A stretch of 22,143 nucleotides of DNA, taken from IMG/VR virus record IMGVR_UViG_2703718843_000010; one strand, written 5' to 3'. Positions 2,939 to 9,550 of the stretch are shown piece by piece. Under the pieces are notes generated by a model. The model had not been told where the DNA came from. It worked only from the letters and a program-made list of their open reading frames with translations, and ran no database searches. The first letter of the stretch is position 1, and each line of letters opens with the position of its first letter. This DNA is from a virus (lineage: Duplodnaviria; Heunggongvirae; Uroviricota; Caudoviricetes). The translations under genes and the position numbers were made by a program.

Positions 2939-3151
2939 ATGACCAGACGTGAACAATATAGTTTCATTTTGCATGTTCTTTTACCTGCTATCGAAAATGA
3001 AGGGTTAACCATTAAAACCCGCCGTGATGGTGAGTTAACCCTTTCTGCCAGTGGGTCTGTAGCAACCAATTTTATAAGCAATCTGCGCCAGCACTGCATT
3101 GAAGAATTGCAGCGCCCTTCTATTCCAGCTTCCCATTACGGAGTCCTATAA
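2939..3151 (+). CDS. Hypothetical small protein (70 aa) immediately upstream of dam
   Basis: ATG at 2939 with GGAGG at 8-nt spacing; its stop (3149-3151) is one base before the dam ATG. Confidence 0.5.
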   Translation: MTRREQYSFILHVLLPAIENEGLTIKTRRDGELTLSASGSVATNFISNLRQHCIEELQRPSIPASHYGVL

Positions 3152-3152
3152 A

Positions 3153-4124
3153 ATGATCCGCCCGTTCATCAAATGGGCAGGGGGTAAAACCCGTGTCCTC
3201 CCTGACCTGCTGCCGCATCTTCCTAAAGTCGACTGCCTGATCGAACCATTCGTAGGCGGTGCATCGGTATTTCTGGCGACTGAATACCGCCGCTATGTGC
3301 TGGCTGATATCAACCCAGATCTTATTAACCTGTATCGGGAAGTCACCCGTTACCCGGACTTAGTGATCGATGCGGCCCGCGAACTGTTCAACAGTAAGAA
3401 CAACCCGCAGGGATACAACGAAGTCCGCGCCGCGTTCAATAAGCAGGTGGGTACGGTAAAAAGCGGTGGGTTGCGTTATGGCGCTGAAATGGCGTGCATT
3501 ATGCGCGCTGCTCAATTCCTGTATCTGAATCGCCACGGTTATAACGGCTTATGCCGATACAGCCGGAAGACCGGCTTTAACGTGCCGTTTGGCAAGTATA
3601 AGAGCGTCTACTTTCCTGAAAATGAAATCCGCCTGTTTGCCGAAAAGGCCAACGATACAAAGGCAATATTTCTTTGCGCGCCGTTCCAGCGTTCTCTACA
3701 AGTCGTCACGGGTGGCGATGTTCTTGTTTACTGCGATCCGCCTTACCTGCCTGAAAGCAAAACAGCCGATTTTACCCAATACCACACCGAACCATTCACG
3801 GAAGACAACCACCGCCAGTTAGTCCAGGCACTGCTGGAAGTTAACCGTAAGCATGGCGTGAAGGTCGTCATTTCCAACAGCGACACCGAAGCCACCCGCG
3901 TGATTTATCAGCCCTTCAAGATGCACGAAATCAGCGTGCAACGTTCCGTCAGCACTGACAAAGACAACCGCCAGAAGGCCAAAGAAGTGATCGGCGTGCT
4001 GCCTGTCTGCGACTGCTGCGGGCGTTACGGCGGCGGTTGCCCTGATTGTGGCGCCGTGATGGGTGATGCGACTTACAACGCGATGGTTGCGGCGGGCACG
4101 TTTGACGATCTGGAGGCTTTTTAA
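3153..4124 (+). CDS. dam: DNA adenine methyltransferase, Dam family (D12 class, likely GATC), with a C-terminal cysteine-cluster extension
   Basis: N-terminal FIKWAGGK, SAM-binding EPFVGGASVFL and catalytic DPPY, with overall collinearity to E. coli Dam as remembered. Extra tail VCDCCGRYGGGCPDCG. ATG at 3153 with GGAG upstream. Confidence 0.9.
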   Translation: MIRPFIKWAGGKTRVLPDLLPHLPKVDCLIEPFVGGASVFLATEYRRYVLADINPDLINLYREVTRYPDLVIDAARELFNSKNNPQGYNEVRAAFNKQVGTVKSGGLRYGAEMACIMRAAQFLYLNRHGYNGLCRYSRKTGFNVPFGKYKSVYFPENEIRLFAEKANDTKAIFLCAPFQRSLQVVTGGDVLVYCDPPYLPESKTADFTQYHTEPFTEDNHRQLVQALLEVNRKHGVKVVISNSDTEATRVIYQPFKMHEISVQRSVSTDKDNRQKAKEVIGVLPVCDCCGRYGGGCPDCGAVMGDATYNAMVAAGTFDDLEAF

Positions 4125-4444
4125 TGGCAAAAATCTATATCGCTGGCCCGATGAGCGGTTTGCCTGGATTCAATCGGCAGGCTTTTAACCGTGCAGCCGG
4201 GCACGTAGTGCGACGCGGAAACGTTGCCCTTAATCCGGCGATTTTGCCGGATGGATTAGAGCAGGCGGAATACATGGATATTTGCTTCGCCATGTTGCGT
4301 TGTGCTGACGGGATCTTCTTGCTGGATGGCTGGCAGCAGTCTGCCGGAGCTAAGGCAGAGCACGCGCTTGCTGAAAAGCTGGGTTTAGAAATTCAGTACC
4401 AAGTAATCGATCGGTGTAGCCGAAAGGCGGAGGGGCAGCAGTGA
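4124..4444 (+). CDS. DUF4406-like protein (nucleoside 2-deoxyribosyltransferase-like fold)
   Basis: 106 aa beginning MAKIYIAGPMSG...NPAILP, the hallmark N-terminus of the DUF4406 family. ATG overlaps the dam stop (TAATG). Confidence 0.75.
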   Translation: MAKIYIAGPMSGLPGFNRQAFNRAAGHVVRRGNVALNPAILPDGLEQAEYMDICFAMLRCADGIFLLDGWQQSAGAKAEHALAEKLGLEIQYQVIDRCSRKAEGQQ

Positions 4445-5355
4445 CCGCCTACTACAACGAAATCGACCCCTTCGCCGCGCAATACCTGCGCAACCTCATT
4501 GATGCCGGGCTTATCGCTTCCGGTGTTGTCGATACTCGTTCCGTTGAGGATGTAACCCCAAATGACCTTAAAGGATTCTCACAAGTCCACCTGTTTGCAG
4601 GTTTTGGAGGCTGGCCCCGTGCTTTGCGCGTCGCAGGATGGCCGGACGACCGCCCAGTATGGACAGCAAGTTGCCCATGCCAACCTTTCAGCCAGGCAGG
4701 CGAAGGAAAACAATTTGATGATGAGCGGCACCTATGGCCCGCCGTTCATTGGCTTGCAGGCCAGCAACGCCCTGTCGTTATATTTGGCGAACAGTCTTCA
4801 AGCAAAGATGCAGAAGTCTGGATCGACCTTGTACAAACTGACATGGAAAGTTTGGGCTATGCCTTCGGGGCGTCGGCGTTTCCGTCTGCGGGCGTCGGTG
4901 CGCCGCACATCCGGGAGCGTACTTACTGGCTGGCCGACTCCAACCGCGAGCAATACGAAGAACGCTTATCAGGATGCCGAGAAGGTGATCGCCAGGAAGC
5001 TGGCTGGTCGGCAGTCGAACTTACAGGGCTTTGCTTGTCTTGCGGGTTGGCCCACCCCTGCGGCGAGGGATGGAAAGGGCGGGTATCAGGGAGGAAGGAT
5101 GCGGCACGGGAAGCTGTCAACGGATACGCTGGATGTGACAGCGCAGATAGCAGGCCCGGCCCGGTTAACGGATTCTGGGGATCTGCTGACTGGCTCCTTT
5201 GCAGAGATGGAAAGTGGAGGCCAGTTAAACCCGGCCTTAAGCCTCTGGTTGATGGGGTTCCCTCCAGAGTGGGAAAACTACGCGCCAGCGGAAACGCCGT
5301 AAATATCTATGCAGCCGCAACTTTCTTAAAAGCCTACATGGAGATCGCGCAATGA
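4441..5355 (+). CDS. DNA cytosine-5 methyltransferase (phage-type); a second long overlapping frame is described in findings
   Basis: GTG start overlapping the upstream stop (GTGA). Motif I FAGFGG, motif IV PCQPFSQAG, GEQ-type motif VI region, motif VIII GAPHIRERTYWLA, motif X GNAVN...FLKAY. Stop overlaps the gene A ATG. Confidence 0.8.
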   Translation: MTAYYNEIDPFAAQYLRNLIDAGLIASGVVDTRSVEDVTPNDLKGFSQVHLFAGFGGWPRALRVAGWPDDRPVWTASCPCQPFSQAGEGKQFDDERHLWPAVHWLAGQQRPVVIFGEQSSSKDAEVWIDLVQTDMESLGYAFGASAFPSAGVGAPHIRERTYWLADSNREQYEERLSGCREGDRQEAGWSAVELTGLCLSCGLAHPCGEGWKGRVSGRKDAAREAVNGYAGCDSADSRPGPVNGFWGSADWLLCRDGKWRPVKPGLKPLVDGVPSRVGKLRASGNAVNIYAAATFLKAYMEIAQ

Positions 5356-7757
5356 CCACGGCAACCCGTGGCCGTCGCGCCCCTTCTCCACCTCCACCGT
5401 ATCCGGGTAGCACTGACAATGCTATCCCTTACGCTTATGGCGGGAACAAACCATACCAGCCTATTGGCGTTGATGTAGCGCCGGGGCTGGATGGTTTCGA
5501 CTATCTCACGCCGGACGGCACGCGTAAGCATATTGCGTTCAGTGAACTGGTAGCGGAAGACGAAAAGCCGGAGCGCAGCAAGCTGCTGCGTCGCCGCCTG
5601 GCTTCTCTTCCGCAGTATATCCGCCGCCACTTTGCCGCGAAGCTGGATGCACTGGACGCGAAAGACCGCAAAGCGGCAGATCACTGGCTGGTTAATACAT
5701 TTGAGCGCCACGTATTAACGCGTATTGATAGCGTGAACAGTGTTTACCAGCCTGACACTGTGATGCCCGGCATTCTGCTGCCAATCCGCGATCAGCTTTT
5801 CCGTATGCTCTGGGCAGGGAAGAAAGAGTTAAAAAGACTGGCTTATACGCTTGCCGATATCTTTACGAGCGAGTTTATACGCGAGTCCGATCACCAGTTG
5901 GCACGCACCGGAGATCCTGAGTTCGCGGCGCTTTCTGGCTATGGCCGTATTGCGTCGCTGGCGGTGCATCTGAAAACGCCGATCCCTGGCTGGACGGCGT
6001 ATTGCAATGAAGAACTGGAAGCGGAGGACGCGTTACGCGCGGTTCTTCGCCTTGAGTCACCGCAGTGGTGGTTAAACCGCCTGCGCCGTATCCATGCCCG
6101 GTGGCGTGAGCATTTGATGATCGCAGCGGGATACGTCCAGAAAAAATCTTCCCCATACAGTAGCGCCCCGTGCCTTACGGAGTGGTTGGCCCAGAAAAAG
6201 GCTAACCGTGAATACCTTAAGGCTATGGAACTGGAAGACCAGGACACGGGCGAACGCATTTCACTGATCGATAAAGTCGCCGGTAGTGTTGCCAATCCGG
6301 CCAACCGTCGCCGCGAACTCATGACGAGAATGCGCGGATTTGAAGATCTGGCGAAGCTGGAAGGGCTGGCCGGTGACTTCTACACGCTAACAGCACCTTC
6401 CCGTTACCACTCCATGCAGCATAACGGGCGCCGCAATAATAAATACTGTGGCGCGTCGCCGCGCGAGACGCAGCAATATCTTTGCAAAGTCTGGGCGAGA
6501 ACCCGCGCAGCGTGGAAGAGAAAAGGGATCCGCGTCTTTGGTTTCCGCGTGGTCGAACCGCACCACGATGCAACGCCACACTGGCATTTACTTCTTTTTA
6601 TGCGCCCGGAATGCGTCGAGCAGGCGCGCGAAATCTTCCGTAAATATGCCCTGAAAGAAGACGGCAACGAACCGGGAGCGCAGGAAAACCGCTTTCAGGT
6701 TGTGCCGATCGACGATGCCCACGGCAGCGCAACCGGCTACATAGCGAAATACATTTCGAAGAATATCGACGGCTTCGCGCTGGATGGTGAGAAGGACGAC
6801 GAAACCGGGGAAGACCTGAAAGAAATGTCACTCCGCGTTAGCGCGTGGGCATCGCGCTGGGCTATTCGTCAGTTTCAGCAGATCGGCGGTGCGCCGGTCA
6901 CGGTATATCGCGAACTTCGCCGCCTGGGCGATCGCGAACTGGTGTTACACCCTGAACTGGAAACCGCCCGGCAGGCCGCTAACGGTGGCGAATGGGATAA
7001 CTACGTATTAGCCCAGGGTGGACCGTTGGTTGAGCGCGATAAGCTGCGCATCCGTCTGAATTATGAAACCACTGAAAACGGCAACGCCTACGGCGATAAC
7101 GTCCAGCGAATCACTGGTATTTACTGCCCGATTACGGGCAATGACTCTTTGATCTTCACCCGCACCACTCAATACAAAATCGTGCCGAAGCGCCAGAGCG
7201 CTGACGGTGTGGCCGTTGACGTTGGTTTTTCAGGCGGCAACGCCGCCCCTCGGAGTTCTGTCAATAACTGTACGCGGGATCCCGCGGCAGGTGCTGACGG
7301 TGTAGAACATGCCGCCAGCGAAGCTACAGGGCAGTCAGAAATGACTGAGCCAGCTGAGGGCGTGACGGTGAATTTTGATGCGCTTTCACGGCAGGAAAAG
7401 CGAGAATTGGCGCAGCGGCTCAGTGCCGATGTGCGAAGTAAGCGTAAAAAACGGCCACCGGATAGGGAAGACAGGGCCGGGCTGTCCGTGAAAGAGCAGC
7501 AGATCAGTGAACTGCTGGCGCTGCGTGGGATTGATGCCAGCGCCGGAATGGTCAGATCGATGATGGCCGGTGCGTCAGTGGCGTGCGGCGATCTTGTTAT
7601 GACCGTGCAGGACGGGCGGCTGGTGTCGCGCAATCGCGCCGCGTCGGGGATAGGTAAATTAGCAACTGAAAAAATGGCAGTTAAGAAAAAATCTGATGAA
7701 CTTCTCAATCGCTGGAAAGTGGCTGTAAAAATTAACAGGGGTAAGTTGACAAATTGA
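5352..7757 (+). CDS. A: Replication initiation protein A (rolling-circle HUH endonuclease), P2 gpA-like
   Basis: 801 aa with HUH-type motif EPHHDATPHWHLLLF and active-site tyrosine motif GYIAKYISKNIDG; collinear with remembered P2 A. Confidence 0.95.
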   Translation: MTTATRGRRAPSPPPPYPGSTDNAIPYAYGGNKPYQPIGVDVAPGLDGFDYLTPDGTRKHIAFSELVAEDEKPERSKLLRRRLASLPQYIRRHFAAKLDALDAKDRKAADHWLVNTFERHVLTRIDSVNSVYQPDTVMPGILLPIRDQLFRMLWAGKKELKRLAYTLADIFTSEFIRESDHQLARTGDPEFAALSGYGRIASLAVHLKTPIPGWTAYCNEELEAEDALRAVLRLESPQWWLNRLRRIHARWREHLMIAAGYVQKKSSPYSSAPCLTEWLAQKKANREYLKAMELEDQDTGERISLIDKVAGSVANPANRRRELMTRMRGFEDLAKLEGLAGDFYTLTAPSRYHSMQHNGRRNNKYCGASPRETQQYLCKVWARTRAAWKRKGIRVFGFRVVEPHHDATPHWHLLLFMRPECVEQAREIFRKYALKEDGNEPGAQENRFQVVPIDDAHGSATGYIAKYISKNIDGFALDGEKDDETGEDLKEMSLRVSAWASRWAIRQFQQIGGAPVTVYRELRRLGDRELVLHPELETARQAANGGEWDNYVLAQGGPLVERDKLRIRLNYETTENGNAYGDNVQRITGIYCPITGNDSLIFTRTTQYKIVPKRQSADGVAVDVGFSGGNAAPRSSVNNCTRDPAAGADGVEHAASEATGQSEMTEPAEGVTVNFDALSRQEKRELAQRLSADVRSKRKKRPPDREDRAGLSVKEQQISELLALRGIDASAGMVRSMMAGASVACGDLVMTVQDGRLVSRNRAASGIGKLATEKMAVKKKSDELLNRWKVAVKINRGKLTN
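7233..7287. other. Candidate replication origin (nick-site region) inside gene A
   Basis: Hairpin GGCGG-CAACG-CCGCC, then CCTCGGAGTTCTGTCAATAACTG, then perfect palindrome CGCGGGATCCCGCG. Encodes the AAPRSSVNNC linker that I remember as the ori-containing part of P2 A. Confidence 0.35.
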
Positions 7758-7774: not shown

Positions 7775-7820
7775 TCTGGTTGACAAAGTTTGATATTTGC
7801 ACTCATGGAGATTTGGATTG

Positions 7821-8414
7821 ATGTCTAAGCAGCCTTTACCTTGGGACTTTCACCCACAATTAACTGAAGAGCGTTTAACAATTATTGCTAAAGAATTGTT
7901 AAGGGTCTTAAATGACACATATGCTCAACTTTCGACCACCTTGGATAACAACTATACACGTTCTACTTGTACTTTTGGTCGTCAATGGCAGTTACTTATT
8001 GATTTATGTTTGAGTGGACAGTACGACTGGCTTCATCTCACCAACGCTGGTTTAGACATCACTTTTACGATCGATACAATTCCTGTTCGTTTCTTCACTG
8101 ATGATCCGGCCAATCCTAAAAAGGATGGTTTTTATCGTCGAAATCCTGCTGATCAGCTTTTTGCTCCTGAGGTGGACATTCCCGTTTTACATCGCTTTGT
8201 TGTTGAGAAACCCGAATTTGAGGGTGAAGGCGCTAAAGTTCATTTCATTGGTTATAACGCTTTGGACGAAGAAGTATCTAAGTGGACGTACAACGATGAA
8301 CCAACAACAGCATTGTTGCACTCTACGGATGATACACCGCCAGAGTCTGTTAGAATTGAACTTGATGACATTCGCCCTTCTCGTCCCGAAAAGGAAGAAA
8401 AAGAGAGCGATTGA
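7821..8414 (+). CDS. Hypothetical protein (197 aa), first gene of the hotspot cassette; candidate effector or toxin
   Basis: ATG at 7821 with GGAG upstream. No motif I recognise; acidic, low-complexity C-terminal tail (PSRPEKEEKESD). AT-richer than the flanking phage genes. Confidence 0.6.
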   Translation: MSKQPLPWDFHPQLTEERLTIIAKELLRVLNDTYAQLSTTLDNNYTRSTCTFGRQWQLLIDLCLSGQYDWLHLTNAGLDITFTIDTIPVRFFTDDPANPKKDGFYRRNPADQLFAPEVDIPVLHRFVVEKPEFEGEGAKVHFIGYNALDEEVSKWTYNDEPTTALLHSTDDTPPESVRIELDDIRPSRPEKEEKESD

Positions 8415-8437: not shown

Positions 8438-9550
8438 GTGTTTAACGGTTCTAATTTAAGATTGGCTCGTCTGTATCACGAGCTATCACTGGAGCAAGTA
8501 GCTGAGCGGGTCGATAAGACCCGCCAGTATATTCAGCGGCTGGAATCCGGCACGGCTGTTCCAACACCCGAGCTTGCGAATAAATTAGCTGCCGTCTTGC
8601 TGGTGATGCCTCATTTTTTTGAAGAGCAATGGCAGTCTCCTGTAAATGAAGAGATCGTTCACTTCCGCAAGCGTAGTTCTACGAGAGTCGCCACAAAAAT
8701 GGCGACTCTCGCCAAAGCTGAGCTGTATCGACGACTTATTGAAATTTTTGAAGAGTATCTGGAGTTACCGCAAGTAAGATTTCCTGAACTGAAGGTGGAT
8801 ACTCAAGAGGATATCGAAAAAGCAGCGGAGAAGTGCCGGACTGATTGGGGGCTAGGTTTTGGGCCGATCGATAACATGACTCGTCTTGCTGAAAAGCTGG
8901 GAGCGTTTGTCACTTCTTTTGATTCTGTTTCTGACGATGTTGATGCTCTTTCTGTTCCTTTGAGCCGCCCATTTATCGTAAGGAATACAGCTAAAAAGTC
9001 ACCCTGCCGTCAGCGGTTTGATATCGCTCACGAGGTTGCACATTTAATTTTACATGAGGGTGTCTCTACTGGAGACAGGGCTACTGAGTCGCAGGCTAAC
9101 CGCTTCGCGTCTGCATTGCTTTTGCCAAGAACAGCTATGGCGAAATATTTTCCACGTCCGATTGGTGGTCGAATCGACTGGCAAGGTCTTAGCCAGTTTA
9201 AATTAACGTGGAAAGTGAGTAAGGCCGCGATCATTTATAGAGCACATCAACTTGGGCTTTTAACTGACGCTCAATACAAAACCGCCTTTTTTGGTCTCAA
9301 GCGAAAGGGGGAGGCTATTGATGAGAAAGAAGATTATTTGATCCCTTGTGAGAAGCCAGAACTATTCAGTAAAGCAATGAAATGCCTGTTAAATGATTTG
9401 TCCGTGGATATTGAAACATTAGCCCAGCGTTTGAGCATAACCCCTACGATGCTCGCAGAACTTGCTAATGATGACACTTTGGTTTCTGCGTCATGTGTGA
9501 ACTCTGAGAATGTAATTTCAATGTTTGCGTATCGGATGAAAACTGCTTAA
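8438..9550 (+). CDS. XRE-family HTH fused to ImmA/IrrE-type (M78, COG2856) zinc metallopeptidase, with an extra C-terminal region
   Basis: GTG start with AAGGTG at 5-nt spacing. N-terminal HTH LRLARLYHELSLEQVAERVDKTRQYIQRLESG; HExxH motif HEVAH encoded at 9029-9043 within the ImmA-like core; about 150 further residues after the core. Confidence 0.85.
   Translation: MFNGSNLRLARLYHELSLEQVAERVDKTRQYIQRLESGTAVPTPELANKLAAVLLVMPHFFEEQWQSPVNEEIVHFRKRSSTRVATKMATLAKAELYRRLIEIFEEYLELPQVRFPELKVDTQEDIEKAAEKCRTDWGLGFGPIDNMTRLAEKLGAFVTSFDSVSDDVDALSVPLSRPFIVRNTAKKSPCRQRFDIAHEVAHLILHEGVSTGDRATESQANRFASALLLPRTAMAKYFPRPIGGRIDWQGLSQFKLTWKVSKAAIIYRAHQLGLLTDAQYKTAFFGLKRKGEAIDEKEDYLIPCEKPELFSKAMKCLLNDLSVDIETLAQRLSITPTMLAELANDDTLVSASCVNSENVISMFAYRMKTA

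Follow-up and report, generated by a model that had tools for sequence, protein, structure and literature searches.

We analysed a 22,143-nucleotide stretch of viral DNA (IMG/VR record IMGVR_UViG_2703718843_000010, Caudoviricetes), hereafter the window, and in it a block of chained genes that ends in a C5-cytosine methyltransferase gene. This gene encodes two proteins: a catalytic chain, F1, and, nested inside it in the +1 frame, a second chain, F2, which we propose to be a DNA-recognition subunit. The list of open reading frames (ORFs) and domain scans identify the window as a prophage of the P2-like (Peduoviridae) kind. In it, the block is preceded by integrase, repressor, Cox, DUF4761 and Fil and followed by replication gene A, an RmrT/RmrA pair and then portal, terminase and capsid genes. 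The original prediction, made from the letters of the window, described four ORFs linked by abutting or overlapping stops and starts and running into gene A, and the sequence and ORF list agree at every junction. The small ORF (ATG 2939, TAA 3149-3151) is separated by one base from the Dam ATG at 3153 (TAA-A-ATG, 3149-3155), the Dam TAA (4122-4124) overlaps the DUF4406 ATG (4124) as TAATG (4122-4126), the DUF4406 TGA (4442-4444) overlaps the methylase start GTG (4441) as GTGA (4441-4444), and the methylase ends in a TGA (5353-5355) that shares bases with the ATG of gene A (5352) in the sequence ATGA (5352-5355). Pfam, NCBIfam and PHROG matches likewise bear out the names given to Dam, DUF4406, the C5-methylase and gene A. 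As for the count of four genes, four chained ORFs are indeed there, but a fifth, nested in the methylase gene, had been missed (Table 1). Tight stop/start chaining is usual in phage operons and unremarkable by itself. A promoter and terminator scan inside the block gave no signal above background, which is consistent with one early operon; the block is the distal part of that operon, with accessory cassettes ahead of replication gene A.

Table 1. Genes of the chained block, with the constrained regions, start signals and methylase motifs of its nested pair (window coordinates).
Feature	Position	Strand	Description
Small ORF	2939-3151	+	70 amino acids (aa); first gene of the chained block; phrog_21140
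Dam-family N6-adenine DNA methyltransferase	3153-4124	+	323 aa; PF02086, TIGR00571
DUF4406 protein	4124-4444	+	106 aa; PF14359, phrog_355
F1, C5-cytosine methyltransferase catalytic ('alpha-like') chain	4441-5355	+	304 aa; PF00145, phrog_363
F2, nested +1-frame gene	4562-5302	+	246 aa, isoelectric point (pI) 9.8; proposed 'beta-like' DNA-recognition subunit
Replication gene A	5352-7757	+	PF05840 at 2e-105; downstream end of the chain
F2 start signals	4546-4564	+	Shine-Dalgarno (SD)-like GAGGA 4546-4550, 11 nucleotides (nt), ATG 4562-4564; within F1 codons 36-42
Region B	4681-4950	+	about 90 codons, both frames constrained: F2 z = 7.0 (F1 kept), F1 z = 10.0 (F2 kept)
Region C	4951-5160	+	constraint in F2 only: F2 z = 5.9, F1 z = 0.5; module region, variable length
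Region D	5161-5299	+	both frames constrained: F2 z = 6.3, F1 z = 6.8; four-fold-site identity 0.76
F1 motif I (FAGFGG)	4594-4611	+	M.HhaI match
F1 motif IV (PCQ, PCQPFS)	4675-4692	+	M.HhaI match
F1 motif VI (GEQ)	4786-4794	+	M.HhaI match
F1 motif VIII (HIRER)	4906-4920	+	M.HhaI match
F1 GNAV	5290-5301	+	conserved C-terminus, F1 aa 284-287

The two frames are both protein-coding and under purifying selection, and they always occur together. The loci examined number 166: 86 viral or phage loci found through F1 (44-99% identity) and 80 loci in bacterial genomes found through F2 patterns, the latter spanning Gamma-, Beta- and Alphaproteobacteria, Desulfovibrionaceae and others. An F2-equivalent +1 ORF is open (230-362 codons) and similar by tblastn in 86/86 of the F1-found loci, and in 80/80 of the genome loci an overlapping F1 has F2 nested within it at +1, so that nesting holds in 166/166 overall. 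SI7 and SEN5, too, have the F2 frame open and its product similar. Within the F2 span of 76 non-redundant loci there is not a single stop in frames +0 and +1, against 14.8 per locus in frame +2 and 5-11 in the reverse frames. When synonymous codons were permuted while the F1 protein and its codon usage were retained (100 shuffles per locus, 22 loci), no shuffle came up to the real F2 similarity in any of the 22 loci, the margin being about 6-13 standard deviations of the shuffles, and the shuffled sequences gained 1.5-8.6 stops. The reciprocal shuffle, which keeps F2, gave the same result for F1.

The constraint is not spread evenly. In 1,651 pairs at no more than 60% F1 identity, identity at F1 four-fold sites is 0.35 in the F1-only N- and C-termini and in 4562-4680, and 0.69-0.76 across 4681-5290. 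Counted by F2 codon position, nucleotide identity is 0.85/0.47/0.85 in 4562-4680, the coding signature of F1; it is uniformly high at all three positions in 4681-4950 and 5161-5290, and in 4951-5160 it becomes 0.45/0.49/0.34, an F2 signature with position 3 least conserved. Shuffles resolved by region (Table 1) start with a region A where only F1 is constrained and F2 is nonetheless open. In region B, where four-fold-site identity of F1 is 0.70 versus 0.35 outside, F1 motifs IV-VIII share the DNA with the F2 stretch LSARQA...GSTLYKLTWK...RAS.RRTS..GWPTP. Region C is left to F2, and F1 stays open across it all the same: shuffles predict 2.99 F1 stops per locus and none is observed in 71 loci. 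In region D, F1 reads NGFW.ADWL.CRDGKWRPV.PG..PL.DG while the other frame encodes the strongly conserved C-terminal end of F2, RLT.SG..LTG..A.ME.GGQLNP..S.WLMG.P.EW. F2 also has start signals of its own, since an F2-frame ATG with an SD-like motif occurs at the window equivalent of 4550 or 4562 in nearly all 76 non-redundant loci. With the N- and C-terminal methylase motifs in frame 1 and a middle that resembles a methylase in frame 2, the gene could be taken for a frameshifted pseudogene. This reading was rejected, since every relative keeps both frames open and conserved.

What do the two chains look like? F1 is recognisable as a C5-methylase, with motifs I, IV, VI and VIII in one chain. It matches PF00145 at 8e-11, over aa 74-172 only, phrog_363 over its full length and M.HhaI at 7e-17 over aa 69-168; an hhalign comparison with M.HhaI gives a probability of 97.8% and covers motifs I and IV-VIII only, and a Foldseek search with the AlphaFold2 model of F1 returns C5-methylases. 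The PF00145 and M.HhaI alignments end at motif VIII, and a conserved target-recognition domain (TRD) and motif IX are absent from F1. Its linker at about 4951-5160 shows no sequence constraint (z = 0.5) but is always open, and AlphaFold2 leaves aa 176-255 disordered. Past the linker the C-terminus is again conserved (NGFW.ADWL.CRDGKWRPV...RVG.LR..GNAV); the GNAV, a motif X-like GNxV, is kept in the family, yet is aligned by neither the hidden Markov model nor hhalign. At the other end of the chain, motifs II/III are not found between I and IV, and hhalign skips M.HhaI residues 33-70. A motif II/III-like pattern, YYNEID..A..L.N ... VD..S..DV, lies instead N-terminal to motif I, and the AlphaFold2 model has high-confidence strands at aa 3-6, 28-31 and 48-51, which suggests that the motif order of F1 is permuted at its N-terminus. 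In the window this segment reads YYNEIDPFAAQYLRNL ... VVDTRSVEDV and precedes FAGFGG within F1 aa 1-60 (4441-4620).

F2 is basic and F1 acidic, with a median pI of 10.2 versus 5.8 (167 loci). A conserved N-terminal part (LSARQA..GL.TSG...GSTLYKLTWK...RAS.RRTS) is followed by modules of the form L-x-G-W-P-T-P-x-A-x-D, which number 1-5 in 76 counted loci, with more by eye in one longer locus (L093), and which stand about 25-45 aa apart in the sequences that we read by eye. The window F2 has two such GWPTP modules, at 4928-4942 and 5045-5059 (+), and its conserved end carries a motif-IX-like QLNP..WLMGFP..W at 5222-5272 (+). Stop to stop, F2 spans 209-446 codons in the genome loci, and two metagenome loci have an F2 of about 500 aa. 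The protein matches phrog_31772 and phrog_1008, both labelled DNA methyltransferase, and gives no match in Pfam, NCBIfam or PADLOC.

F2 is found by tblastn in 219 phage records, down to about 30% identity, and an F2 profile collects 16,685 clusters at 50% identity (E <= 1e-3), 5,102 of them at E <= 1e-30; a separate search returned 5,880 clusters at 90% identity, the best of which are named hypothetical or uncharacterised and have no Pfam domain. Relatives of F1 are named 'DNA cytosine methyltransferase' and F2 goes unannotated in RefSeq. K1G and PhiXhv-5 have both overlapping ORFs already annotated as methyltransferases, and in Salmonella phage SLP-22 the annotator picked the F2 frame. Among public proteins, the window F2 is found at 99% identity and full length, as 'hypothetical', in Citrobacter, Salmonella and Enterobacter, and the best full-length F1 entry among the matches listed is 83% identical, closer F1 entries being fragments. 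Evidently, gene callers choose one frame or the other. In our literature searches, with REBASE outside their scope, no publication on such nested reading frames in methylase genes of phages turned up. Relatives that seemed to carry F2 alone or in a single frame (SLP-22, phiKX1, RcBigEagle, the 'Dunaliella viridis virus SI2' record and two long metagenome proteins) all proved to be dual-frame on inspection.

A few loci appear to be rearranged. In two unrelated ones, an HNH-endonuclease ORF follows right after the F2 stop, in the F2 frame: at 1885-2403 of locus L091 (Komagataeibacter phage phiKX1) and at 4465-4941 of locus L092 (a metagenome contig). F1 is open through this ORF in both (548 and 768 aa) and then resumes with ...GYGNA..., and the phiKX1 ORF ends in a duplicate of the F2 tail (WDDCAVTAMPSSRK). 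The HNH ORF looks like a mobile insertion tolerated by the dual-coding gene. The 'Dunaliella viridis virus SI2' record, a Caudoviricetes sequence, holds a deletion derivative of the methylase gene (locus L089, 1401-1817). There, F1 is reduced to 138 aa, with the N-terminal 33 aa joined to the C-terminal region and no catalytic core, F2 is reduced to 104 aa, with one GWPTP module and the conserved end, and both frames are still open!

Read as F1-F2-F1, the conserved pieces fall into the classical order: motifs I-VIII, recognition region, IX and X. We propose, with a probability of roughly 65%, that F1 and F2 together form a two-chain C5-methylase in which F2 supplies DNA recognition and motif IX. 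F1 would be the acidic catalytic chain, carrying S-adenosylmethionine-binding and catalysis motifs I and IV-VIII and the conserved C-terminus that ends in GNAV, with its unconstrained linker placed where the target-recognition domain normally lies. F2, presumably translated from its own SD and the ATG at 4562 inside F1, would be the basic chain, in which a conserved segment at the N-terminus and a motif-IX-like C-terminus enclose GWPTP modules that vary in number. The two would associate into an active enzyme in the manner of M.EcoHK31I alpha and beta, and we envision that methylation of phage or prophage DNA by this enzyme would allow escape from restriction. The proposal is built on the M.EcoHK31I precedent, on both ORFs being kept whole and on F2 having its own start.

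M.EcoHK31I, a YGGCCR C5-methyltransferase, comes from E. coli HK31 (Lee, Kam and Shaw 1995, on the account given in PMC2836561 and PMC3404938). According to these papers, its beta chain is encoded wholly in another frame within alpha, alpha contains motifs I-VIII as well as motif X and the TRD, beta holds motif IX, and both chains are required (PMC2836561, PMC3404938). The beta N-terminus is described as mediating association (PMC2836561, PMC3404938), and the N-terminal part of this small chain as partly dispensable, with internal Met codons able to start it. The likeness is evident in the layout: F2 lies wholly inside the F1 gene in another frame, and both frames are under selection. M.AquI, a serially split C5-methylase, is another natural two-chain enzyme whose chains must associate, as we propose for F1 and F2 (PMC3404938). 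There are differences too. The beta chain of M.EcoHK31I is 176 aa long, against 209-446 codons for the F2 of the genome loci, and while M.EcoHK31I is part of a restriction-modification system, F1 and F2 are phage or prophage genes with no endonuclease seen. F1/F2 is best filed as a variant of the M.EcoHK31I kind; what matters here is the conserved dual-coding methylase gene.

Several observations weigh against this proposal. The sole hhalign alignment between F2 and M.HhaI does fall on motif IX (KLHPRECARVMGYPDSY vs QLNPALSLWLMGFPPEW, F2 221-240 and M.HhaI 273-292), but it falls short of significance (E = 0.28; larger profiles gave 0.23), and an F1-F2-F1 chimera gives no rise in PF00145 score. 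The F2 profile found no solved structure when searched by sequence against the PDB, and AlphaFold2 fails to fold F2 alone (pLDDT, its per-residue confidence score, 35, with a shallow alignment). Over roughly its first 40 codons F2 shows no constraint, which leaves the exact start unfixed. The TRD of M.EcoHK31I is assigned to the alpha chain, whereas F1 has no conserved TRD and the modular conserved region is in F2; besides, the likeness of M.EcoHK31I to F1/F2 is one of published description. The evidence on the proposed enzyme is sequence evidence, and the charge complementarity between acidic F1 and basic F2 is the only sign seen that bears on chain association. The stricter idea that F2 is a homologue of the classical TRD plus motif IX was dropped: it brought no gain in Pfam scans, the PDB search was empty and the hhalign match was not significant.

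The alternative that survives best, although we consider it unlikely, is that F2, although a real protein, does something other than methylation, for instance as a methylase regulator or inhibitor or a DNA-binding anti-defence factor, overprinted on F1 and merely co-inherited with it. A basic protein that resembles no Pfam, NCBIfam, PADLOC or PDB entry significantly and for which AlphaFold2 gives no confident fold would suit this idea. However, a passenger of this sort agrees less readily with an obligate nested arrangement in every one of the loci, across distant phages and bacteria, and with constraint on F2 exactly where F1 has no conserved recognition domain. Furthermore, motif IX is the one place where F2 aligns with M.HhaI, short of significance as this alignment is, and M.EcoHK31I provides a precedent for a nested chain that takes part in methylation (PMC2836561).

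Somewhat less probable still is the reading of the original prediction, in which the small ORF, Dam, DUF4406 and the C5-methylase act as one modification or anti-restriction package, with DUF4406 working on methylase substrates or products. The genes are tightly chained in one operon and, in a sample of 80 viral contigs or loci with close DUF4406 relatives, an F1/F2-type methylase lies directly downstream of DUF4406 in 15, non-P2-like phages included. Conversely, DUF4406 is found no more than 1.6 kb upstream in 7 of the 86 methylase loci. Against the package, each element is found without the others, and most F1/F2 loci have no DUF4406. The other genes downstream of DUF4406 in the 80 contigs are heterogeneous, and 23 of these contigs are P2-like with Dam upstream. 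In fact, the stretch from Dam to gene A is a slot of swappable cassettes, and the four genes are no obligate unit, because the slot contents vary among related Peduoviridae: in phiT5282H a 59-aa ORF accompanies the small ORF and Dam, SEN5 combines the small ORF and Dam with the C5-methylase alone between Dam and A, SI7 has Dam, a 75-aa ORF and the C5-methylase, and E. coli 730V1 has Dam, DUF4406 and a 73-aa ORF. Dam is found upstream of A in many other Peduoviridae, with or without the C5-methylase. Phage P2 itself is not known to have any of the four genes at the position upstream of A. Even where DUF4406 is kept, its partner changes. Two P2-like IMG/VR contigs, L100 (4318-5424) and L102 (3992-5098), carry a methylase allele that is 48% identical to that of the window and about 200 nt longer, between a DUF4406 that is 99-100% identical and a gene A that is 95-97% identical, with the F1/F2 cassette swapped exactly at the overlapping stop/start junctions. 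The idea of an integrated package with DUF4406 working between the two methylases is not supported.

Two complete E. coli genomes, 81009 among them, hold the same block at 98.5% identity, where PGAP names a hypothetical protein, a DNA adenine methylase, a DUF4406 protein, a DNA cytosine methyltransferase and a replication endonuclease; the module as first described is already annotated in RefSeq and is ordinary. That its methylases are orphans agrees with what we see, because no restriction-endonuclease gene was seen among the window ORFs scanned; the best PADLOC match of Dam is an 'orphan methyltransferase' model. An anti-restriction role of the block is plausible.

We next consider whether the two frames might be joined into a single chain. 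A single-chain methylase made by two programmed frameshifts, from F1 to F2 (+1) near 4930 and from F2 back to F1 (-1) near 5280, would restore the classical motif order, and we regard it as very improbable. The conserved pieces do come as F1, F2, F1 in that order, and the joins ...RERTYWL|PTPTA... and ...PEWENY|RASGNAV... look methylase-like by eye. However, this scheme leaves no reason for F1 to stay open through a linker of 70-200 codons, in which about 3 stops per locus are expected, nor for F2 to be open for about 120 codons upstream of the putative shift site with its own conserved ATG and SD. Moreover, regions B and D are constrained in both frames, the chimera scores no better against PF00145, and no obvious slippery run was noticed in the window sequence, where no systematic search was made. 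Finally, that F2 is no gene at all, open by chance or through G+C-rich codon usage or a constraint on the RNA, is scarcely credible: although the genes are 54-67% G+C, which lowers stop frequency, and RefSeq leaves F2 unannotated, shuffles that preserve codon usage and F1 still create 1.5-8.6 stops and much lower similarity, frame +2 is full of stops (14.8 per locus), region C has its periodicity in the F2 frame, protein-level similarity extends to about 30% identity in the 219 phage records and the loci are not near-identical copies (F1 identity of 44-60% for most).

If the two-chain methylase is accepted, a bolder extension suggests itself. Bacillus phages SPR, phi3T and rho11s have multispecific orphan C5-methylases in which tandem short recognition modules sit in a single chain, read in one frame. 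The tandem GWPTP modules in the variable region of F2 recall this arrangement, a likeness of layout. Tentatively, then, F2 might be the specificity subunit in a very large class of two-chain C5-methylases of phages that has gone essentially unannotated. The enzymes would be multispecific, with every GWPTP module recognising a target of its own, and would gain and lose targets with the modules while F1 only has to stay open. We hold this to be possible but doubtful. Were it true, these genes, with 250 to about 500 codons and no fewer than 16,685 clusters at 50% identity, would be among the longest and most widespread dual-coding regions of double-stranded DNA phages.

The two-chain reading has practical consequences. 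If F1 needs F2, thousands of 'DNA cytosine methyltransferase' annotations in phages and prophages describe half an enzyme, and the proposed other half is absent from RefSeq or labelled hypothetical, with no Pfam family. This would bear on the interpretation of methylomes, on the prediction of restriction evasion and host range, and on heterologous expression, as a recoded F1 clone would destroy F2. The loci also provide a large natural data set on two proteins evolving on one DNA, with about 140 codons doubly constrained and one stretch of variable length that is constrained only in F2 and across which F1 must stay open. Lastly, naturally split methylases could serve targeted-methylation designs like those built from M.EcoHK31I (PMC2836561).

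Turning to the other genes of the block, DUF4406 matches PF14359 over its full length at 3e-31 (108.1 bits, gathering threshold 22) and phrog_355, 'nucleoside 2-deoxyribosyltransferase', at 5e-41. By this Pfam and PHROG annotation it falls in the nucleoside 2-deoxyribosyltransferase/DNPH1-like superfamily. It shows an N-terminal IYIAGP-type motif and a later acidic motif, which may be features of that superfamily, and it differs in being only 106 aa long. A sequence search against solved structures found no relative, and the literature searched holds passing mentions only, with no functional work found. Our best guess is a nucleotide or nucleoside N-glycosidase-type enzyme that forms a separate cassette. 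That DUF4406 recurs immediately upstream of F1/F2 methylases, in two phage backgrounds, is no more than suggestive of a link, and the neighbourhood analysis gave no tie of DUF4406 to the methylases.

Dam matches PF02086 at 1e-62, scores 272.6 bits against TIGR00571 (cut-off 114.85) and stays below the cut-off of the E. coli Dam equivalog NF008152 (278.6 bits vs 441). Its core, aa 3-282, matches the structure of E. coli Dam (PDB 2g1p) at 3e-70, with which it shares the DPPY catalytic motif (VYCDPPYLP in the window translation) and the TIGR00571 score. From this similarity, Dam would methylate adenine, presumably at GATC. It departs from E. coli Dam by an extra Cys-rich C-terminal tail of 41 aa. 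This tail (aa 283-323, nt 3999-4121, VLPVCDCCGRYGGGCPDCG...) holds at least 4 Cys and matches a short segment of RecE/exonuclease VIII (NF007259 at 3e-5) as well as exonuclease PHROGs. In E. coli 81009, PGAP marks the Dam gene as partial and calls a pseudo-fragment at the tail, and in relatives a 3'-5' exonuclease gene follows Dam. Recombination may have left this tail as a scar, or it may be a small add-on that binds zinc. The small ORF upstream matches phrog_21140, a family of unknown function, at 3e-41 and has no match in Pfam, NCBIfam or PADLOC; related P2-like loci also carry it upstream of Dam.

At the edges of the block, the 86-nt gap between fil and the small ORF (2853-2938) contains a G+C-rich inverted repeat, CCGCC...GGCGG, at about 2883-2907, on which the terminator scan made no call; a T-rich run follows, and then a strong GGAGG ahead of the ATG at 2939. 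On the other side, directly 3' of gene A in the accessory position of P2, the RmrT/RmrA pair occupies 7815-8414 and 8438-9550 (+), with PADLOC scores of 8e-92 for RmrT and 3e-204 for RmrA. RmrA combines a helix-turn-helix with a Peptidase_M78/IrrE domain, and the pair, carried by the prophage, is a known candidate for defence against phages.

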